Sequence record: NC_019715.1 | From: Escherichia phage mEp234 | Direction: 5' to 3' (one strand) | DNA length: 39,578 bases | In this document: positions 8,097 to 19,180 of the stretch, one piece after another | Position numbering within the stretch: position 1 is the first letter of the stretch | How the letters are laid out: each line of letters opens with the position of its first letter | Translations under genes and position numbers: made by a program | Notes under the pieces: model-generated | What the model was told of the DNA's origin: nothing | The model's database searches: none | What the model saw: only the letters and a program-made list of their open reading frames with translations

Positions 8097-8153
8097 TTGC
8101 TTCACATGCCTTCAATGTAGCGATACGCTCTTTCCTTAAGTAAAGGAGGCGTT

Positions 8154-8342
8154 ATGGAACCACTGGTAGTAGTGTTTGGAATATTCGGCTGGCTGATAAA
8201 TCTAATTGTGATTTTTTATTTATTACGGTTTAGCACAAGGGCAAATGAACAAGTTGAAGCCCTTAAAGAGATAAATAAAAAGCAAGATGCGCAAATAGAT
8301 TTATTAATACAAGTCGCTCACCAAAGAAAAGACAGTTTATAA
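8154..8342 (+). CDS. small single-pass membrane protein, HK97 gp15/YebO-like (candidate superinfection exclusion)
   Basis: 62 aa; strong SD AAGGAGG; N-terminal TM helix then RFSTRANEQVEALKEI; AT-rich; located between T and tape measure, the position of HK97 gp15. Confidence 0.55.
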   Translation: MEPLVVVFGIFGWLINLIVIFYLLRFSTRANEQVEALKEINKKQDAQIDLLIQVAHQRKDSL

Positions 8343-8348
8343 CTCACG

Positions 8349-8372
8349 ACCCGCTATCAAGCGGGTTTTTTT
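8349..8372 (+). terminator. stem-loop plus U-tract after gp15-like gene
   Basis: ACCCGCT-ATCA-AGCGGGT then TTTTTTT, immediately followed by ATGGGTGAAAATATG. Confidence 0.5.
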
Positions 8373-8384
8373 ATGGGTGAAAAT

Positions 8385-11300
8385 ATGGCTACGTTGCGCG
8401 AACTGATCATCAAAATATCTGCAAACTCTCAGTCATTCCAGTCTGAAATTTCTCGTGCTTCAAGAATGGGGAATGACTATTACCGGGTAATGCAGACTGG
8501 AGGACGCCAATCGGCCGCAGCTTCGCGTGAAACTCAGCGTGCCTTGGCTGAGGTAACTAGTCAAATAAACACCGCGAAGGCCTCAGCACTGGGAATGGCT
8601 GGTGCATTTGCTGGAGCATTTGCGACTGGTCATCTTATATCGCTGGCCGATGAATGGAGCTCTATTAATGCCAGGCTAAAGCAGGCTTCCCAGTCGTCAG
8701 ATGATTTCACGGAGTCCCAGCGGGCGCTGATGGATATTAGCCAGCGAACCGGAACCGCCTTCTCTGATAATGCGAGTCTTTTTGCGCGTTCAGCCGCTTC
8801 TATGCGTGAATATGGCTACAGTTCAGAAGAGGTTCTGAAGGTAACCGAGGCTATATCAACAGGGCTTAAGCTGTCAGGCGCAAGCGCGTCTGAAGCGAGT
8901 TCGGTAATCACGCAGTTCAGCCAGGCTCTGGCGCAGGGTGTTCTTCGAGGCGAGGAATTTAACTCCGTCAACGAAAACGGTGATCGAGTTATCCGTGCTC
9001 TTGCCGCAGGGATGGGTGTAGCTCGTAAAGATCTGAAGGCAATGGCCGATCAGGGGATGCTAACCGCAGATAAAGTTGTCCCGGCCCTGATAAGTCAACT
9101 TGGCACTATGCGTGGTGAATTTGAGGCAATGCCGCAGACCGTTTCTGCTGCCACGACGAAAGTCGAAAATGCTTTCATGGCATGGGTAGGTGGCGCTAAT
9201 GAAGCCACTGGTGCGACAAGTACTCTTGTTGCCGTATTGAATACGGTTTCTGACAATATAGACACTGTGGCTACGGCTGCCGGAGCTTTGGCTGCGATAG
9301 GTGGAGCTCGCTATCTTGGAGGGATGTTTGGCGATCTTGGGAACCAGACGGCGCAATTAATAGATGCCAGAAAGAACGAAATTGCGCTCGCAGCTGCAAG
9401 GGCTGAATCTGCTACCCAATCACAACGCAAGGCCGCCGCCGATGCTATTGCTGCTGAGCGAGCTTACCAGCTTGCTCAGTCAGAACTTGTGCTGGCAAAG
9501 AATACTAATGCTGAGGCTACTGCCACTCAAAATGCCATATCCAAGCGCCGGGCAATGATTACAGCAAATGCGGCACTGGTACAGTCAAACAGAGCCGTTG
9601 CAGCCTCTCAGCAGGCACTTAACTCTGCAACATCAGTGCTGGGGCTTGTAAAAACTGGCGCTACGGGTCTTTTGTCGTTAGTTGGTGGTTTGCCAGGAAT
9701 TTTAATGTTGGGTGCTGGGGCGTGGTACACGATGTATCAACGCCAAGAACAAGCCAGGGAATCTGCAATCAAATATGCGGACACAATAGAGCAGGTACGA
9801 GATAATCTGAAATCAATGTCTCAGACGCAGATATCCGCCAACCTTGGACAGGCGAATATTTCACTGGATGCTCAGAATAGTGCGATTGAACAGCAGAAGC
9901 AGAAAGTTGCTGAATTATCCAATCAACTTTATAACGCAAAATTAGCAGCCAATTCTGCTTCAGAGGGGACATGGCTGTATAACGATGCGGTTGAGAAAGC
10001 CGCAGACTTTGCTTCAGAACTTGCGGTTGAAGAAGGCCGACTTGAGCAAATGCTCAATAAAAGAAAGCAAACACAACAGTTAATAAACGACATAACTGAT
10101 CAGGCTATAAATAAAACAGTAGAAATGGCTGGCGCCGTAAGTTCTCTTACAGAGATGTATGACCGGCTGAACAAGGTTTCCAGACAGTCTACAGCAGTGT
10201 CCCCACCAAAATATGCAGGACCTGTACTTCCTGCGCTTGATAATAAGCAACAACAAGCTATTGAGAAAGCACAGCGACAGCTTGAGTTATCTGGCCTTCA
10301 GGGTTTGGATAAGGCTCGAAAGCAGGCAGAATTCGATGCATCTGATCTGAACCTTCCAGCTGGTTGGCGTGAGAAATATGTCAGCATGGAAGTTGAGTCT
10401 GCCAGGCAATTACAAGCAATTCGTAACTCAAGCCGCCATAAGGGTGGAAAATCCGAGGCGGAAAAAACAGCTGATACCTATGACAAGCTGATCAAGCAGC
10501 AAAAAGAGCAGATCGCTCTGCAAGGGCAGAATACCGAGCTGGCAAAGGTTAAATATCAGGTAAGCCAGGGTGAGCTTTCTACGCTAAGTCAGGCCCAGAA
10601 AGCCGAAGTTATGCGTAATGCTGCTCTCATCGATCAGGTTAAATTGCGTGAGCAACTGCGAAATTACGAAGCCAACCTTGCTGACAGTAACGCCAGCGCC
10701 CGCGCAGCCAATGAAGCGCAACTGCTGGGATACGGGCAGGGAACCAGGTTCCGTGAAAGACTTCAGGAGCAGTTCAATCTGCGTAAGGAGTTTGAGCAGA
10801 AGAATACCGATCTTCTCCGCCAGCGTCAGGCTGGTGAAATCGACGAGACGTTCTATCAGCAGGGGCTGGCACTTAATAAGCGCTACCTCGAAGAGCGCCT
10901 GCGCGACCAGGAGGGATATTACGCAGCTTCTGATGCGCAGCGTGACGACTGGATGACGGGACTGTCTGAGGGTTATGCGAACTGGGTGGACGAAGCGACA
11001 GATTACTCCTCCATGGCCGCTGACGGCATGAAGCAGGCCATGGGTGGCGCGGTCACCACGATCACCGACATGCTCAATGGCAACGTTGACAGCTGGAAGG
11101 ACTGGGGCGTGAGCGTACTGAAGATCATCCAGAACGTTCTGGTGAACATGGCTGTTGCTAACGGCGTCAGTTCAATTGGTTCTCTCTTCAGCTTTGGCGC
11201 ATCTTCCGCCGCTGCCGCCAGTAGCGGTACTGCAATTCAGAACGCTGGCGCGAACTTCACCTTTAACGCGAAGGGTAATGTTTACGACTCTCCGTCCCTG

Positions 11301-11651
11301 AGCGCATACAGCAATGGCGTGTTTCAGACCCCTCAGCTTTTTGCTTTTGCCAAAGGAGCGGGTGTGTTTGCAGAGGCTGGACCTGAAGCCATTATGCCGC
11401 TTACCCGTGCTGCTGATGGTTCGCTTGGCGTTCGGGCTGTTGGCACTGGTGGTGGTCAGGCTGTATCTTCGGCTCCACAGGTTTACATCACCATCGATGG
11501 CAACGGAAATACTTCCACGCAGACTTCACCCGGCCTTGAGCAATTTGGTGCTGATGTCGGTAAATATATTGATCAGCGATATAAGCAGAACATCATGCGA
11601 GATATTCGCCCTGGCGGTGACATCTGGAACGCAATGAAAGGAACCCGATAA
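8385..11651 (+). CDS. tail tape measure protein
   Basis: About 1090 aa, alanine/glutamine-rich with long coiled-coil stretches; follows G/T. Track ORF begins at ATG 8373, which abuts the U-tract; ATG 8385 is the more likely start. Confidence 0.9.
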   Translation: MATLRELIIKISANSQSFQSEISRASRMGNDYYRVMQTGGRQSAAASRETQRALAEVTSQINTAKASALGMAGAFAGAFATGHLISLADEWSSINARLKQASQSSDDFTESQRALMDISQRTGTAFSDNASLFARSAASMREYGYSSEEVLKVTEAISTGLKLSGASASEASSVITQFSQALAQGVLRGEEFNSVNENGDRVIRALAAGMGVARKDLKAMADQGMLTADKVVPALISQLGTMRGEFEAMPQTVSAATTKVENAFMAWVGGANEATGATSTLVAVLNTVSDNIDTVATAAGALAAIGGARYLGGMFGDLGNQTAQLIDARKNEIALAAARAESATQSQRKAAADAIAAERAYQLAQSELVLAKNTNAEATATQNAISKRRAMITANAALVQSNRAVAASQQALNSATSVLGLVKTGATGLLSLVGGLPGILMLGAGAWYTMYQRQEQARESAIKYADTIEQVRDNLKSMSQTQISANLGQANISLDAQNSAIEQQKQKVAELSNQLYNAKLAANSASEGTWLYNDAVEKAADFASELAVEEGRLEQMLNKRKQTQQLINDITDQAINKTVEMAGAVSSLTEMYDRLNKVSRQSTAVSPPKYAGPVLPALDNKQQQAIEKAQRQLELSGLQGLDKARKQAEFDASDLNLPAGWREKYVSMEVESARQLQAIRNSSRHKGGKSEAEKTADTYDKLIKQQKEQIALQGQNTELAKVKYQVSQGELSTLSQAQKAEVMRNAALIDQVKLREQLRNYEANLADSNASARAANEAQLLGYGQGTRFRERLQEQFNLRKEFEQKNTDLLRQRQAGEIDETFYQQGLALNKRYLEERLRDQEGYYAASDAQRDDWMTGLSEGYANWVDEATDYSSMAADGMKQAMGGAVTTITDMLNGNVDSWKDWGVSVLKIIQNVLVNMAVANGVSSIGSLFSFGASSAAAASSGTAIQNAGANFTFNAKGNVYDSPSLSAYSNGVFQTPQLFAFAKGAGVFAEAGPEAIMPLTRAADGSLGVRAVGTGGGQAVSSAPQVYITIDGNGNTSTQTSPGLEQFGADVGKYIDQRYKQNIMRDIRPGGDIWNAMKGTR

Positions 11652-11992: not shown

Positions 11993-12747
11993 GCTTAAAC
12001 GCAGATTATCAGAAGCTGGAATCCGGAAACGATGTTCGTCTGATTGAGGTGGACGGTTCTTCCTTTGGGCTAACGGACGTTCTCCGCTTTCACAATTACA
12101 GCATTCCCCACACAGAAGCGGAAATCATCGCCGCTGGTGGGGATGAGTCCAAGCTTCCGGCGAAACCAATCTGGTGGCAGGGAAATGAATACGCCGCCTG
12201 GCCGTATCAGCTGGAAGGTCTGGAGAAATCAACCAGTGGGAGCAATGCAACGCCATCACTGACGGTTGCGAACATCGAAAGCTCCATTTCTGCTCTGTGT
12301 CTTGCGTATGACGATCTGCTGCAGGCTAAAGTCACTATTCACGACACAAAAGAGAAATATCTCGATGCCAGGAATTTCGCAGACGGTAACCCTTCTGCAG
12401 ACCAGACTCAGGAAAAGCTGCAGGTCTGGTATATCGACGGGAAAACGGGCGAGCTTGCCGGTGAAACCGTTGAATTTGTTCTGTCCAGCCCGATGGACCT
12501 GCAGGGGCAAATGATCCCGACGCGACAGCTTCATTCCCTGTGTACCTGGTGCATCCGGAATAAATATCGCACCGGCGACGGCTGCGACTATGCCGGCACC
12601 CGCTATTTCGACAAAAACAACAACCCGGTAAGCGATCCGTCGCTGGATGAATGCAACGGCACGCTGACGGCCTGCAAACTCCGATTCGGCGAAAATAACG
12701 AACTCTCGTTTGGTGGCTTCCCGGGCACGTCTTTGATCAGGAGTTGA
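11989..12747 (+). CDS. minor tail protein L
   Basis: 252 aa; C-terminal cysteine cluster (CTWC...C...C) as in lambda gpL; synteny. Confidence 0.8.
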   Translation: MSLNADYQKLESGNDVRLIEVDGSSFGLTDVLRFHNYSIPHTEAEIIAAGGDESKLPAKPIWWQGNEYAAWPYQLEGLEKSTSGSNATPSLTVANIESSISALCLAYDDLLQAKVTIHDTKEKYLDARNFADGNPSADQTQEKLQVWYIDGKTGELAGETVEFVLSSPMDLQGQMIPTRQLHSLCTWCIRNKYRTGDGCDYAGTRYFDKNNNPVSDPSLDECNGTLTACKLRFGENNELSFGGFPGTSLIRS

Positions 12748-12748
12748 T

Positions 12749-13459
12749 ATGCGTCAGAAAACCGTCGATGAGATTATGGCGCATGCTGCAGCTGAATATC
12801 CTCGCGAGTGTTGCGGCGTGGTGGCGCAGAAAAGCCGTGTTGAACGTTATTTCCCGTGCCGGAATCTTGCCGCGGCGCCGGAGGACAATTTTGTCCTTTG
12901 CCCGGAAGATTACGCAGCTGCTGAGGACTGGGGTACGGTGATCGCCATCGTTCACAGTCACCCTGACGCCACAACGCAACCGAGCGAACTGGATAAAGCG
13001 CAATGCGACGCAACGCTTTTACCCTGGCACATCGTGAGCTGGCCTGAGGGGGATTTGCGCACCATCCAGCCGCGTGGGGAACTGCCGCTGCTGGAGCGTC
13101 CGTTTGTGCTTGGCCACTTCGACTGCTGGGGTCTGGTAATGAGCTATTTCCGGCAAACGCATGGTATCGAGCTCCACGATTACCGGGTTGATTATCCCTG
13201 GTGGGAAAACGACTATCCGGACAACTTCTATCAGGATTGCTGGTATGAGTGCGGATTCCGTGAATTCGACGGACCACCGAAACCCGGCGATATGGTGATC
13301 ATGCAGGTCCAGGCTGATAAGTGGAACCACGCTGGAATTCTGCTGGAGGGCAATATGCTGCTGCACCACCTGTACGGACATCTGAGCCAGCGCGTGCCGT
13401 ATGGTGGCTACTGGCAGGAAAGGACGATGAAGATTCTTAGACATCAGAATTTTATTTAA
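12749..13459 (+). CDS. tail assembly protein K (JAB/MPN plus NlpC/P60 domains)
   Basis: 236 aa; HSHP metal-site motif (VHSHPD), C-terminal Cys/His peptidase-like region; lambda gpK synteny. Confidence 0.8.
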   Translation: MRQKTVDEIMAHAAAEYPRECCGVVAQKSRVERYFPCRNLAAAPEDNFVLCPEDYAAAEDWGTVIAIVHSHPDATTQPSELDKAQCDATLLPWHIVSWPEGDLRTIQPRGELPLLERPFVLGHFDCWGLVMSYFRQTHGIELHDYRVDYPWWENDYPDNFYQDCWYECGFREFDGPPKPGDMVIMQVQADKWNHAGILLEGNMLLHHLYGHLSQRVPYGGYWQERTMKILRHQNFI

Positions 13460-13506
13460 CAAACTGTCACTGATACTATCGTGTAGTACACAGCAAGGAG
13501 AACGAT

Positions 13507-13731
13507 ATGTATACAGTTGGGTTTGGTTGGATCTTCGTCGGTATTTTTATTGGGTTAATTCTCTGGTTTTTCATCAACCGCGCCAGCGTCAGAGCGAACA
13601 GGCAGGTTGAATTACTTGAGTCTATCGACCAGAAATTATCAAAAATAGTAGATCCAAACTTCGAGGCAAATAACAAAGACCAGTCGAAAGAAAACTACCT
13701 TGAAGAAGCAAGGAAAAAAGCTGGGCTTTGA
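13507..13731 (+). CDS. small single-pass membrane protein, paralogue of the gp15/YebO-like gene
   Basis: 74 aa; SD AAGGAG; TM helix then INRASVRANRQVELLESI, the same architecture as the 8154-8342 protein; AT-rich; own hairpin/U-tract follows. Confidence 0.5.
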   Translation: MYTVGFGWIFVGIFIGLILWFFINRASVRANRQVELLESIDQKLSKIVDPNFEANNKDQSKENYLEEARKKAGL

Positions 13732-13746
13732 GAGCGTAAATTAACA

Positions 13747-13769
13747 AACCACCTACGGGTGGTTTTTTT
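13747..13769 (+). terminator. stem-loop plus U-tract after second membrane-protein gene
   Basis: CCACC-TACG-GGTGG then TTTTTTT, followed by ATGGGGGCAGCATG. Confidence 0.5.
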
Positions 13770-13780
13770 ATGGGGGCAGC

Positions 13781-14389
13781 ATGCAAGAGGTAATGACAAG
13801 AATTGAGCTAAGTGGCGTGCTAGCTAAGACATATGGAAGGGTTCATCACCGTCTGGTTCGCACTACTGCTGAAGCCATTAATGCACTCGCGAAAACCATC
13901 AATGGATTCGAGAAATTCTTAAACACAAGCAAAGCCCGAGGGCTGACGTATGCCGTTTATAGAGATAAAAAGAATATTGGCGTTGATGATCTCGGCTTTC
14001 CCGTCACCGGCGAAGTGATCCGGATTGTCCCTGTAGTAATAGGGAGTAAAAAGGCTGGTCTTTTGCAGACGATCTTGGGGGCCGTGCTTATTACTGCTGC
14101 TGTGTTGACTGGAGCCGGCGGTATTGGCGCTGCTTTCGCTGCTGGTGGATTGACGGGGTTTGCTGCTGCCACTGGTGCCTCGTTGGTCCTCGGTGGGGTT
14201 ATTCAGCTGCTTTCACCGCAGCCATCAGGCATAGCCAGTAAACAAAGCGCAGATAACCGTGCATCGTATGCGTTTGGCGGGGTAACCAACACTGCAGCGC
14301 AAGGCTACCCGGTGCCTCTGCTTTATGGTAAGCGTCGAATCGGCGGAGCGATTATTTCTGCCGGAATTTATGTCGAAGATCAGCAGTAG
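13781..14389 (+). CDS. tail assembly protein I
   Basis: 202 aa; glycine/alanine-rich hydrophobic C-terminal half; between K and J. Confidence 0.75.
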   Translation: MQEVMTRIELSGVLAKTYGRVHHRLVRTTAEAINALAKTINGFEKFLNTSKARGLTYAVYRDKKNIGVDDLGFPVTGEVIRIVPVVIGSKKAGLLQTILGAVLITAAVLTGAGGIGAAFAAGGLTGFAAATGASLVLGGVIQLLSPQPSGIASKQSADNRASYAFGGVTNTAAQGYPVPLLYGKRRIGGAIISAGIYVEDQQ

Positions 14390-14408
14390 ATAACTAACCT
14401 TTTTTCTG

Positions 14409-14430
14409 GCCACCTTCGGGTGGCTTTTTT
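14409..14430 (+). terminator. stem-loop (UUCG tetraloop) plus U-tract upstream of J
   Basis: GCCACC-TTCG-GGTGGC then TTTTTT, followed by ATGGGCGCAATATG. Confidence 0.45.
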
Positions 14431-14441
14431 ATGGGCGCAAT

Positions 14442-17400
14442 ATGGCTACAGATAAAGTGTTAAAAGGCCGCAAGGGCGGCAGCTCAAGTTCCCGAACCCC
14501 TACCGAACAGCCTGATGATCTGCAATCTGTAGCGAAGGCAAAGATCCTCGTTGCGCTTGGGGAAGGGGAGTTTGCTGGACAGCTCACCGGGAAGGATATC
14601 TACCTGGACGGAACAGCGCTGGAGAATGCTGACGGCTCCCAAAACTTCAGCGGGGTAACGTGGGAGTTTCGCGCGGGAACGCAGGCGCAAAAATATATTC
14701 AGGGTATTCCCGGTACCGAAAACGAGATCAGCGTAGGAACTGAGGTATCAAGTGCCACAGCCTGGACGCGCACGTTTACCAATACGCAGCTTTCAGCAGT
14801 TCGCCTGCGTCTTAAATGGCCCTCGCTTTTCAAACAGGAAGACGACGGCGATCTGGTGGGTTACTCGGTCAATTATGCGATTGACCTGCAGACGGACGGC
14901 GGCACATGGCAGACGGTACTCAATACCAGCGTGACCGGCAAAACGACGTCTGGTTATGAGCGCAGCCACCGTATCGATTTACCGCAGGCTGGCAGCACAT
15001 GGACAATACGTCTGCGTAAGATTACCTCTGACGCCAACAGCGCGAAGATCGGCGACACGATGATGCTGCAGAGCTTCACCGAGGTGATTGATGCCAAACT
15101 GCGCTACCCGAACACCGCGCTGCTCTACGTCGAATTCGACTCAAGCCAGTTCAACGGCTCTATTCCTCAAATTTCATGCGAACCGCGCGGCCGCGTTATC
15201 CGCGTTCCAGATACCTACGACCCTGAAACCCGCACTTATAGCGGTACATGGACCGGTGCGTTTAAGTGGGCATGGACGGATAACCCTGCGTGGATTTTTT
15301 ACGACCTGGTTGTTTCTGACCGGTTTGGCCTCGGGCACCGTTTGACCGCTGCGAATATTGATAAATGGACTCTTTATCAGGTTGCTCAGTATTGTGATCA
15401 GATGGTACCAGACGGCAAAGGGGGCAACGGTACAGAACCACGCTATACCTGCAACGTGTACATTCAGGACCGGAACGACGCCTACACAGTCCTGCGTGAT
15501 TTTGCCGCTATCTTCCGTGGCATGACCTACTGGGGCGGGGATCAGATTGTGGCCCTGGCTGACATGCCGCGCGATGTTGATTACAGCTATACGCGCGCTA
15601 ACGTTGTTGGCGGTCGCTTCACCTATTCGAGCAGCACCACGAAAAGCCGCTACACCACAGCGCTGGTTTCATGGTCAGATCCGGGTAACGCTTATGCCGA
15701 CGCAATGGAGCCGGTATTTGAGCAGGCGCTGGTGGCGCGATACGGCTTCAATCAGCTGGAAATGACAGCCATCGGCTGCACCAGGCAGTCAGAGGCGAAC
15801 CGAAAGGGGCGCTGGGGTATTCTCACCAACAACAAGGATCGCGTTGTTTCGTTTGATGTCGGGCTGGACGGAAACATTCCGCAGCCGGGCTACATCATCG
15901 CCGTGGCAGACGAGCTGCTTTCCGGAAAGGTTATGGGCGGCCGCATCAGCGCCGTTAACGGTCGCGTTATCAAACTTGACCGCGTAGCTGATGCAGCACC
16001 AGGTGATCGCCTTATTCTCAACCTGCCTTCCGGAGCGTCGCAGAGCAGGACCATTCAGGCCGTGAACGGGGAATCAGTCACAGTCACCACGGCATACAGT
16101 GAGACGCCACAGGCCGAAGCTGTTTGGGTTGTTGAATCTGACGAGCTTTACGCGCAGCAGTATCGTGTTGTCAGCGTCTCCGACAACGGTGATGGCACTT
16201 TCTCAATCACCGGCGCATGGCACGACCCGGATAAATATGCCCGCATCGATACCGGAGCCATCATTGACCAGCGGCCGGTGAGCGTGATCCCGCCTGGTAA
16301 CCAGTCGCCGCCTGCGAACATCGTGATCAGCTCGTTTTCCGTGGTGCAGCAAAATATCAGCGTCGAAACGATGCGCGTGAGCTGGGACCAGGCGCAGAAC
16401 GCTATCGCCTATGAAGCGCAATGGCGCCGCAACGACGGGAACTGGGTTAACGTGCCGCGCACCTCCACCACGTCATTCGACGTCCCGGGGATTTATGCCG
16501 GGCGCTACCTGGTGCGGGTGCGCGCAATCAATGCCGCAGAAATTTCATCCGGATGGGGCTATTCAGAAGAGAAAACGCTGACGGGTAAAGTGGGCAATCC
16601 ACCGAAGCCGGTTGGCTTCATCGCTTCTGAAAATGTGGTTTTCGGCATCGAGCTGAACTGGGGATTCCCGGCGAATACCGACGACACGCTGAAGACGGAA
16701 ATTCAGTACAGCCTGACCGGAACCGAGGACGATGCGATGCTGCTGGCCGATGTGCCTTATCCGCAGCGCAAATATCAGCAGATGGGCCTCAAGGCTGGGC
16801 AGATTTTCTGGTACCGCGCTCAGCTGGTGGACCGCAGCGGCAACGAATCAGGGTACACAGAATGGGTGCGAGGACAGGCCAGCATCGATGTTTCCGACAT
16901 CACAGATGTGATCCTGGAGGACATGAAAGGCTCCGATACGTTCAAAGACCTGATCGAGAACGCTGTGGACAGCAATGAAAAAATTGCTGGCATGGCTGAC
17001 GAAATCAAAAACCATGCCGACGAACTCGAGCAGCAGGCGAAAGACATCCAGGAAAACGCTGACGGGCTGGCCCAGGCCGAAGTGAAGATCGACGAGATTT
17101 CTGTGTCGATGGATGGCATGACGGGAGGCGTGAAGAACTCGGCAATCGCGATTATCCAGAATGGGCTGGCGCAGGTTGTCAGTCGTCGTTCCCAGACCGC
17201 GACAAACGCAGGGAACAGCGCCAGCATTGACCGTATCGACACGACCATAGCCGACACCAGCTCGGCGGTTGCTCGCGCGCTGGTGACGCTGGATGCTTCA
17301 GCTGGTGGGAATATCTCCAACTCTACCGATCTCACTGAAACTCTGGCCGATTTCACGCAGGCATCGGCGACAAAAATTAACACCCTGAATGTTAAATCTG

Positions 17401-17898: not shown

Positions 17899-18201
17899 AT
17901 GGCTTATGGAATACAGACCTGGGATGCTTCAGGAAAACCCAACAACTATGGCATCAAACCCGTTTCCGTCGTTGGGCGAATACAGCTGGCTGCCGGGCAA
18001 ACCTCCGGCAGCTGGTCTTTTACGGTGCCCTCAGGAATGAAAGTTGGTTTTGTTCTTTCACTTGATGAAGGAGGTAACAGCGTAGGGCGGCGCATTGTCG
18101 CGTCAGGGAGCACAATAACCGTAAGCGCTGCATCTTCTGTAGGTCTGGGTAATTATCCGGCCTCAAAGTGTGAAGTGGTCGTTTTCATGGAGAAAGCATA
18201 A
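17899..18201 (+). CDS. hypothetical protein downstream of J
   Basis: 100 aa, ATG 2 nt after the J stop; N-terminal motif GIQTWDASGK recurs in the next protein. Confidence 0.5.
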   Translation: MAYGIQTWDASGKPNNYGIKPVSVVGRIQLAAGQTSGSWSFTVPSGMKVGFVLSLDEGGNSVGRRIVASGSTITVSAASSVGLGNYPASKCEVVVFMEKA

Positions 18202-18839
18202 TGGCCGAATTTGGCGCGATGATATTAATGGACAACGGGAACCCATTTGTAACGCCCCAGTCAACGCCTTTTTGTCTTTACGGCAAGTACACTTTCAACT
18301 CCTCTGCTAATGGCAGTTCGCAGCAGGTTGCTCAGAATATTGCATTAAATGCTGACTACCCTGTGATGGTATTTATCAGGACCACAAATACCGCCCAGCC
18401 CACGCCAGTAATATCTTACCGGAACGGCGGAAATATATATGTCGCGGGGGTTAATCCCTATAACCAGAGCTTCACGTTAACCGCATATATTTTTGCCATA
18501 TTTCCCCAGACGTTACCGAAATGGGGGATGGCCATCTGGGATTCGAGCGGGAAGCTGGTACTCACTAATGAGTCCCGCGTGCTGTCAGACTTGCAGACAA
18601 TCGGAACGCCTGGAGCAAACGGCGGGATTAACATTGACCAGACGCTTGATGGTTCATGGGCAGTGGCTCCATCAAGGCTGGGGCAAGTGAACAGAAACGA
18701 CGCTTACTCATCTTGTAGGTATTCAGGCACAAGTACAAGAATAAACGCCGGTACAGCCGCAAATACACCTGGCGGTGCTGGAGGGGTGATAAATAATGGA
18801 ATTATCCTGACAGCAATTAAAACAGACGCCTATGATTGA
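18201..18839 (+). CDS. hypothetical protein (possible tail-tip accessory)
   Basis: 212 aa, start overlaps the upstream stop (TAATG); contains AIWDSSGK, related to the N-terminus of the preceding protein; Gly/Asn/Thr-rich. Confidence 0.5.
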   Translation: MAEFGAMILMDNGNPFVTPQSTPFCLYGKYTFNSSANGSSQQVAQNIALNADYPVMVFIRTTNTAQPTPVISYRNGGNIYVAGVNPYNQSFTLTAYIFAIFPQTLPKWGMAIWDSSGKLVLTNESRVLSDLQTIGTPGANGGINIDQTLDGSWAVAPSRLGQVNRNDAYSSCRYSGTSTRINAGTAANTPGGAGGVINNGIILTAIKTDAYD

Positions 18840-18946: not shown

Positions 18947-19180
18947 ATGAAAAGGCTAATTATCTGCATAGCGGGCGCTTTAATGCTGTCTGGTTGCGCT
19001 GGTGTACTTGAGAAACAGAAACCGATTTGCAGCGGCACGGCATATATGGGTGGCCATGAGAATACCGTTATGATTTACGCCGTTCGAAAGCAAAACAACC
19101 AGACGCAATACCGGGCCGGATATCCCTTTAACTGGCGCTGGGTAAGTGCGAACACATTCACAAGCACGACATGTAAATAA
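18947..19180 (+). CDS. small lipoprotein (Cor-like superinfection-exclusion candidate)
   Basis: 77 aa; signal peptide with lipobox LSGC; AT-rich upstream region; sits between J and the side tail fibre, where lambdoid phages carry cor/lom-type genes. Confidence 0.5.
   Translation: MKRLIICIAGALMLSGCAGVLEKQKPICSGTAYMGGHENTVMIYAVRKQNNQTQYRAGYPFNWRWVSANTFTSTTCK

Follow-up and report, generated by a model that had tools for sequence, protein, structure and literature searches.

Gene 20 of phage mEp234, a YebO-like moron between tail genes K and I: relation to the exclusion protein gp15 and a possible role at the inner membrane

Between the tail-tip genes K and I of Escherichia phage mEp234, an HK97-like phage, lies a short gene, gene 20, whose product gp20 resembles gp15, the exclusion protein encoded elsewhere in the same tail operon. 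What would a second protein of this kind do there, and how did the pair arise? Superinfection exclusion by HK97 gp15 was reportedly described by Cumby et al. in 2012, and gene 15 is said to be a moron between gene T and the tape measure gene. We analysed the 39,578 nucleotides of sequence record NC_019715.1 (the window, to which all coordinates refer), following an earlier note that had taken gene 20 for a second candidate exclusion gene. Gene 20 is under selection, is homologous to gp15, is mobile among tail-operon junctions and sits in a hotspot of accessory cargo. Regarding function, the reading that we favour, at just short of an even chance, is that gp20 would be made from the prophage and would act in the inner membrane to block DNA entry, its specificity being unlike that of gp15. 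It is already known that gene 20 is an annotated moron of the YebO family and that the paralogue pair is standard for HK97-like phages. New here are the subfamily structure with its phage-type tail motif, the mobility among junctions, the contrast in tape-measure linkage, an amber codon in HK97 and the K-I hotspot; otherwise gene 20 is an ordinary, already-annotated moron.

The two proteins are encoded as follows.

13507 to 13731, plus strand: open reading frame (ORF) of gp20, ATG at 13507 to TGA at 13731, 74 amino acids, YebO-like (PF13974)
8154 to 8342, plus strand: gp15, 62 amino acids, paralogue of gp20, 98.4% identical to HK97 gp15

A BLASTP comparison of gp20 with gp15 shows 19 identical residues of 44 (E = 5e-9). 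With the transmembrane (TM) helix removed, RASVRANRQVELLESIDQK still aligns with RFSTRANEQVEALKEINKK at 11 of 19 positions (E = 3e-5). The pairwise alignment that the earlier note had proposed as a check thus extends past the helix, and its proviso that the two proteins might align over the helix only does not hold, since the match persists without it. The Pfam YebO model PF13974 has a curated gathering threshold of 27 bits; gp20 clears it with 47.7 bits (E = 1.8e-12) and gp15 with 38.7 bits. The two proteins also match phrog_5031 from end to end. In each, one N-terminal TM helix is followed by R-x-S-x-RAN-x-Q-V-E-x-L, and each is encoded in a low-GC (guanine plus cytosine) cassette of the same operon; the paralogy and the shared architecture proposed in the note are therefore sound. 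A published review of the gp15 work likewise places gp15 in the YebO family (PMC3594210), and PGAP (Prokaryotic Genome Annotation Pipeline)/RefSeq names the identical K-I gene of E. coli prophages 'YebO family protein'. NCBIfam gave no meaningful match.

The likeness has clear bounds. The identity of gp20 to gp15 is only 31-43%, gp20 ends in a YLEEARKKAGL tail that is absent from gp15-type proteins, and the genes lie at different junctions, K-I for gp20 and T-H (between T and the tape measure gene H) for gp15. Members of the gp15 subfamily have 58-62 amino acids and carry (E/D)INKKQDAQIDLLIQ(I/V)(A/V)H; gp20 has 74 amino acids and SIDQKLSKIVDPNFE in that place, and it shares neither the T-H position nor the linkage to HK97-type tape measures. 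A recent duplication within the genome was considered and is ruled out by the low identity and by the separate conservation and distribution of the two subfamilies.

The gp20 protein itself is divided into three recognizable parts.

13519 to 13575, plus strand: predicted TM helix, gp20 residues 5-23, from hydropathy
13576 to 13629, plus strand: juxtamembrane motif NRASVRANRQVELLESID, residues 24-41, hallmark of the gp20-type subfamily
13696 to 13728, plus strand: C-terminal motif YLEEARKKAGL, residues 64-74

Residues 5-23 form the top 19-residue hydrophobic window (mean Kyte-Doolittle value 2.36) and the sole strongly hydrophobic stretch; about four residues precede it, and R25, R29 and R32 follow it, three arginines within nine residues. 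By the positive-inside rule, these arginines probably place the helical C-terminal part of about 50 residues in the cytoplasm, a membrane topology that we infer from hydropathy and the arginines. An AlphaFold2 model built with 18 homologues has a helix over residues 2-48 and a second, low-confidence helix over residues 52-71, with a mean predicted local distance difference test score (pLDDT) of 71.5 and values of 83-94 for the first 20 residues. The juxtamembrane motif NRASVRANRQVELLESID is near-invariant among gp20-type homologues that are just 50-76% identical overall. It includes the family-wide core R-x-S-x-R-x-N-x-Q, common to gp15 and E. coli YebO, and R25, S27, R29, N31 and Q33 are invariant in an alignment of gp20, gp15, E. 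coli YebO and a Klebsiella prophage protein.

Gene 20 is a real gene under strong purifying selection. Against its orthologue in locus L102 (93% amino-acid identity), the nonsynonymous rate dN is 0.041, the synonymous rate dS is 0.945 and dN/dS is 0.043, a ratio that rests on one informative pair, more distant comparisons being saturated at synonymous sites. The flanking genes give ratios of similar size, 0.035 for I against L102 and about 0.07 for K against L100 and L010 (the two finite K values). Gene 20 has resided at K-I long enough to diverge along with K and I.

The gene forms a compact cassette, whose elements and flanks are the following.

12749 to 13459, plus strand: tail-tip gene K, upstream flank (ORF list and annotation of PV340539.1)
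13460 to 13780, plus strand: gene 20 moron, the entire K-I intergenic cassette of 321 base pairs (bp), from the K stop at 13459 to the I start at 13781
13471 to 13479, plus strand: candidate extended -10 promoter element TGATACTAT, proposed from conservation
13495 to 13500, plus strand: Shine-Dalgarno sequence AAGGAG, 6 nucleotides 5' of the ATG, read from the sequence
13746 to 13769, plus strand: intrinsic terminator with an 8-bp stem, TACG loop and 7-T run, directly 5' of the gene I ribosome-binding site
13781 to 14389, plus strand: tail-tip gene I, downstream flank (ORF list and annotation of PV340539.1)

Positions 12700-14500 are 100% identical to the mEp234 record PV340539.1, in which the ORF is annotated "hypothetical protein, gp20" and flanked by K and I, in agreement with the insertion described in the earlier note; HK106, HK446, mEpX1, mEp235, HK75, HK97, HK022 and other Hendrixvirinae are 93-99.8% identical. 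The 74-residue ORF and its Shine-Dalgarno sequence were likewise recovered as quoted in the note, and so was the hairpin with its U-tract (CCACC-TACG-GGTGG, then seven T). This hairpin, AAACCACC-TACG-GGTGGTTT at 13746-13765 with a T run ending at 13769, was recovered by a terminator scan that reported 3 sites where 0.5 would be expected. Its folding energy is -13.6 kcal/mol (z = -2.9), and the annotation of the HK97 record marks it as a putative terminator. The GC content of the cassette is 0.40-0.42 against 0.52-0.62 in the flanks. Extra DNA, deviant GC content and an own terminator are features of a moron in the sense of Juhala et al. (2000), and the label 'moron gene product' was already given to gp20 of HK022 in the first record of that phage (2000).

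The cassette DNA is about 100% identical in mEp234, HK97, HK022 and mEp506, except at codon 33 of HK97. In the more diverged K-I cassettes, the start, length and ribosome-binding site of gene 20 are conserved; the AGG of the Shine-Dalgarno sequence is invariant, and its GGAG core is retained in four of five. A TGnTA(C/A/G)TAT box stands at the same place in L102 (TGTTAATAT) and L100 (TGTTAGTAT), where adjacent bases vary, and the extended -10-like form TGnTAnTAT is kept in three of the five. As a putative promoter, this box would put the transcript start near 13486 and give a short leader containing the Shine-Dalgarno sequence. Two minus-strand ORFs, 13476-13676 (66 amino acids) and 13622-13786 (54 amino acids), overlap gene 20 and recur with the cassette; no support was found for them as genes, and they look like by-products of cassette composition.

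The gp15 cassette has the same layout, with low GC content, an own Shine-Dalgarno sequence and an own terminator, and PV340539.1 annotates its ORF as 'Gp15 exclusion protein', with the tail assembly genes on one side and the tape measure gene on the other.

8348 to 8374, plus strand: terminator of the gp15 cassette, hairpin at 8348-8367 (-13.0 kcal/mol, z = -3.5)
8373 to 11651, plus strand: tape measure protein (H), HK97-type, 99.4% identical to the HK97 tape measure (L022)

Across the two cassettes the GC content dips to 0.36-0.42 against 0.52-0.62. Both end in GGTTTTTTTATGGG, and in both the hairpin is followed by TTTTTTTAT(G/A)GG(T/G)G just before the ATG of the next tail gene (8360-8376 and 13760-13776; also in L009, L012 and L014). 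The terminator T-run thus abuts the downstream ribosome-binding site, a pattern that recurs in cassettes with unrelated cargo. The common ends were considered as a sign of common origin and set aside; since unrelated cassettes share the hairpin and T-run, we treat this end as a general junction feature.

How the pair came about can be approached from its distribution. A tblastn search located gene 20 in 13 distinct GenBank phages (HK75, mEp235, HK542, HK446, mEp506, HK544, ECP1, HK022, mEp234, HK106, HK633, mEpX1 and HK97), and its cassette is rare in E. coli, where 7 of the 5426 complete genomes contain it. Eight of the 13 also have gene 15, those without it being HK022, mEp235, HK542, mEp506 and ECP1, and all eight GenBank phages with gene 15 carry gene 20. 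Possession of both genes is thus the usual state of this phage group. The earlier note had called the two-paralogue arrangement unusual, which this count does not support; the gene also already had its moron annotation in HK022 and its PGAP name.

We further surveyed 80 IMG/VR loci (L017-L096) whose K protein is at least 94% identical; these are the best 80 of at least 600 matches and do not represent population frequencies. Among them, gp20 occurs in six (one is HK97 with its amber codon) and gp15 in four. L025 has gp15 without gp20, and L019, L028 and L032 have gp20 without gp15. The two cassettes are separate insertions that assort independently. They also differ in their company: in this sample every gp15 gene accompanies a tape measure that is at least 82% identical to that of mEp234 (HK97-type), and gp20 occurs alongside tape measures 99%, about 63% and about 44% identical to it. 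Linkage of gp15 to a tape-measure type, and the lack of it for gp20, fits non-redundant specificities.

The same sample covers the survey of K-I occupancy in related phages that had been suggested in the note. The K-I gap measures 17, 62-63, 324 (gp20), 369, 404-427, 463, 503-514, 578-597, 682, 782-785, 805 or 1186-1525 bp, so that gp20 is one of many cargos in a gap of 17-1525 bp. Besides a Fic/DOC protein (L070) and a SocA/Panacea protein (L033), the alternatives include at least nine unrelated predicted lipoproteins or secreted proteins that match no Pfam family; HK140 also carries a lipoprotein-like gene at K-I. In these close relatives the K-I junction is a recombination-prone hotspot of accessory cargo, mostly lipoproteins, and as such a rich, largely unannotated source of prophage accessory genes. 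The T-H gap (8097-8372 in mEp234) ranges from 28 to 568 bp: empty junctions measure 28-71 bp, those with gp15 about 280 bp, and those of 409-568 bp carry different cargo, none of it YebO-like (for example L019, L034, L057 and L087). A YebO profile search of all ORFs of the loci found no hidden YebO-like genes among the alternative T-H or K-I cargo.

Beyond these relatives, the family separates into recognizable types. The gp20-type homologues, 50-99% identical, come from Enterobacter, Serratia, Pantoea and a species labelled Metakosakonia/Phytobacter massiliensis and keep NRASVRANRQVELLESID and YLEEARKKAGL almost unchanged. The gp15-type homologues, from Citrobacter, Klebsiella and Raoultella, keep R(F/V)S(T/V)RANEQVEALKEINKKQDAQIDLLIQ(I/V)AH and end soon after. 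The gp20 type lies at K-I in Serratia fonticola, Pantoea sp. GM01, a metagenomic contig and a Metakosakonia/Phytobacter prophage (K-I loci L008, L010, L100 and L102), at T-H in Pantoea rwandensis, and, in another prophage (L012), at the H-M junction. The gp15 type lies at T-H in all three contigs examined (Citrobacter/Enterobacteriaceae prophages), even with a different tail-tip module. All phage-type contexts examined are in siphophage tail operons near the tape measure gene, including T-H positions (L009, L007, L014-16) and, in other tail types, positions just upstream of the tape measure gene (L097, L099).

A profile search of 1.84 billion representative proteins returned only 78 YebO-family clusters, which align as two groups: a chromosomal type with a long N-terminus and an ...IRLVAER or ...VIPER end, and phage types with a short N-terminus; for most comparison sequences the label 'chromosomal' denotes resemblance to K-12 YebO rather than gene context. 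The end (D/E)YLEEARKKAGL is common to the gp20 type, the Klebsiella T-H protein, P0075, P0083, P0084, P0089 and P0094, and is absent from gp15-type proteins and chromosomal-type YebO sequences; P0075 and P0094, whose contexts were checked, come from other siphophage tail modules, where each is encoded just upstream of the tape measure gene. We define a phage-borne YebO-like clade by a short N-terminus, this end and a siphophage tail operon, all of which gp20 shows; the clade rests on motifs and gene context, used instead of a tree because the alignable core has about 45 residues. The chromosomal group has about 90-100 amino acids, an N-terminal extension of at least 13 residues and an (I/F)xx(V/I)(A/P)ER end, features that gp20 lacks.

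Two comparators are instructive here. E. coli YebO (b1825, a small membrane protein encoded on the chromosome) belongs to the same Pfam family, and its best local alignment to gp20 has 22 identities in 30 residues, including an identical IGLILWFFINRAS; YebO differs in its length of 95 amino acids, its 13-residue N-terminal extension and its ...IIRLVAER end, where gp20 has the phage-type tail. Recent capture of host yebO, or gene conversion with it, was tried as an origin and rejected. The DNA encoding the 13 residues of IGLILWFFINRAS is identical at 29 of 39 nucleotides, and of the 20 codons that specify shared residues only 10 agree, the other half differing synonymously. The second comparator, a Klebsiella prophage protein (QBQ71586.1, ST101-KPC2phi6.3; P0073), has the highest identity to gp20 among the comparators (49%), a C-terminus, DYLEEARKKAGLI, near that of gp20, and a gene placed in a tail operon whose head and tail module is HK97-like. 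It differs in its gp15-like middle segment, KQSAQIDLLIALAH, and in its gene lying directly upstream of the tape measure gene. This 77-residue T-H protein (L007 4983-5216 in ST101-KPC2phi6.3, and about 20 Klebsiella prophage records) looks as if it merged gp15 and gp20 features. Distant YebO-like genes with the YLEEARKKAGL tail also lie just upstream of the tape measure gene at L097 5001-5276 and L099 5001-5267, in modules where the stretch from the tail chaperone to the tape measure gene also includes Arc, antirepressor-domain (P22_AR/Bro-N) and KilA-N genes.

From motifs and contexts together, gp15 and gp20 are in our reading old paralogues that derive from a single phage-borne lineage and were inserted separately. 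The 'independent acquisitions' of the earlier note thus stand in the sense of separate insertions, for which L025 on one side and L019, L028 and L032 on the other speak; in the sense of two captures of a host gene they do not, given the phage-borne YebO-like pool and the shared C-terminal motif.

One feature of the HK97 reference affects how earlier work bears on gp20.

13603 to 13605, plus strand: codon 33 of gene 20, CAG (Gln), TAG amber in the HK97 reference (alignment column 164)

In HK97 (L002, AF069529), TAG at 1404-1406 ends the ORF after 32 amino acids, and because of this shortening gene 20 is unannotated in AF069529. A supE host is expected to read the amber as the wild-type Gln. Since HK97 carries the amber, gene 20 is dispensable for lytic growth, which is compatible with an accessory, host-side function. 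HK97 was the phage used in the published work on exclusion by gp15 (PMC3594210), which would thus not have tested intact gp20; HK022, mEp234 or HK75 are the right phages for its study.

What, then, might gp20 do? HK97 gp15 resides in the inner membrane of the lysogen and stops siphophage DNA entry after adsorption in a tape-measure-dependent manner (PMC3594210, PMC10883804, PMC12939059). Hybrids whose tail tube as well as tape measure come from HK022 escape it (quoted in PMC10883804), and a recent review has the block act on the tape measure-PtsG complex (PMC12939059). On the reading that we favour, gene 20 would be a self-contained moron in the late tail operon, with a candidate promoter, a strong ribosome-binding site, an ORF and a terminator. 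Its product, a predicted single-pass inner-membrane protein with a cytoplasmic helical C-terminal part, would be made from the prophage and would block genome entry at the inner membrane, as gp15 does, with a specificity other than that of gp15 and not tied to the tape measure of the resident phage. Expression from the prophage, the exclusion function and its target are what we infer here; the exclusion role is suggested by the homology to gp15, the moron anatomy and the tail-operon context near the tape measure gene.

Known systems offer analogies. P22 SieA, Tuc2009 Sie2009 and TP-J34 Ltp are prophage-encoded membrane proteins that block DNA entry after adsorption, and a role for gp20 would be analogous. 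SieA is much larger and polytopic, Ltp is a lipoprotein, and to our knowledge gp20 has no sequence relationship to SieA, Sie2009 or Ltp. For TP-J34 Ltp, as for HK97 gp15, sensitivity is set by the tape measure (PMC10883804). Within mEp234, cor (18947-19180), downstream of J, is a small exclusion gene and moron of the tail region; its protein is unrelated to gp20, and its site of action is not the inner membrane but FhuA, a receptor of the outer membrane (PMC3594210). Between J and cor lie two unannotated ORFs, 17899-18201 and 18201-18839. With gp15 and cor, gp20 would be one of three entry-blocking genes in mEp234, and if it is a second entry blocker with its own specificity, HK97-like prophages would hold a layered trio of gp15, gp20 and cor in one tail operon.

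Several points weigh against this role. Membership of the YebO family is no guarantee of exclusion, as HK97 was unaffected when E. coli YebO was over-expressed or deleted (PMC3594210). In mEp234, gene 20 is not adjacent to the tape measure gene, and the predicted cytoplasmic location of the C-terminal domain makes direct contact with a periplasmic tail tip less obvious. The conserved KKQDAQIDLLIQ(I/V)AH segment of gp15-type proteins is not present in gp20, and no PADLOC model matches gp20 or gp15. A paper discussing gp20 was not found in the searchable literature, which did not cover Cumby et al. 2012. Finally, a two-hexamer scan found no sigma-70 promoter upstream of gene 20; the scan likewise found none upstream of the gp15 gene, for which prophage expression is reported (PMC3594210), and it is thus uninformative.

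A broader form of the entry-blocking reading, possible but somewhat doubtful in our judgement, takes the phage-borne YebO-like proteins as interchangeable inner-membrane entry blockers of Enterobacterales prophages, with gp20 heterotypic and gp15 homotypic. Such proteins would hop between siphophage tail-operon junctions, their variable middle segment would set the blocked phage or the host entry factor, and a partner in the cytoplasm, common to all of them, would be engaged through the conserved YLEEARKKAGL tail. A heterotypic gp20 would exclude phages with a tape measure or inner-membrane entry route unlike that of the resident phage, an activity that, on this form, would never have been seen because of the amber codon in the HK97 reference. 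If gp20 is a second entry blocker with its own specificity, the YebO-like family would supply natural variants with which to map how a membrane protein of 60-80 residues stops a tape-measure-led DNA channel.

Of the alternatives, lysogenic conversion survives best, and we consider it unlikely but worth serious attention. Here gp20 would behave as a small membrane regulator, tuning some transporter or sensor of the host, and would thereby alter host physiology rather than phage entry. The TM-proximal identity to E. coli YebO is suggestive, given that gp15 reaches only 38% to YebO, and host yebO adjoins mgrB, which encodes a small membrane regulator of PhoQ; the indifference of HK97 to YebO (PMC3594210) and the lack of ties between gp20 and any tape-measure type point the same way. 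However, all phage-type copies examined lie in tail operons near the tape measure gene, outside the usual conversion regions. The C-terminal two thirds of gp20 are unlike the chromosomal type and carry the phage-type motif, and the sole family member of known function is an exclusion protein.

Quite improbable, in our view, is a late lytic role, in which gp20 made from the late transcript would block sibling or foreign injection into the committed cell or condition the membrane before lysis. Gene 20 is co-oriented with and embedded in the late tail operon and would thus be transcribed late with or without a promoter of its own. The failure of the scan to find a canonical two-hexamer promoter, and the long joint divergence of gene 20 with K and I in the K-I lineage, would agree with this role. 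HK97, however, grows with gene 20 truncated at codon 33, and most close relatives carry unrelated K-I cargo, a few almost none; the own terminator and the conserved extended -10-like box would also be superfluous for a plain operon member.

A hetero-oligomer of gp20 and gp15 acting as one exclusion system is very improbable. Both are single-pass helical membrane proteins of one family, and all eight GenBank gp15 phages carry gene 20, but the two genes assort independently: L025 combines gp15 with a K-I lipoprotein, and many gp20 phages and prophages have an empty T-H junction. Moreover, HK97 gp15 is reported to exclude (PMC3594210) although HK97 gene 20 is amber-truncated. Scarcely credible is a decaying remnant or chance ORF, which the inactivation in HK97 and the rarity of the cassette among complete E. 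coli genomes would suit, but which is contradicted by the purifying selection seen above (dN/dS 0.043 at dS of about 0.95), by motifs that persist across genera at 50-76% identity and by the conserved start, length and ribosome-binding site.

Cargo is also found at the next junction of the tail operon. In mEp234, I ends at 14389 and is followed directly by J, which starts at 14442, without an I-J moron. HK97 has gp22/gp23 there (L002 2223-2683), HK022 an 'srb protein' (L003 2212-2532) and mEp506 a DUF2594 protein (L004 2210-2524).

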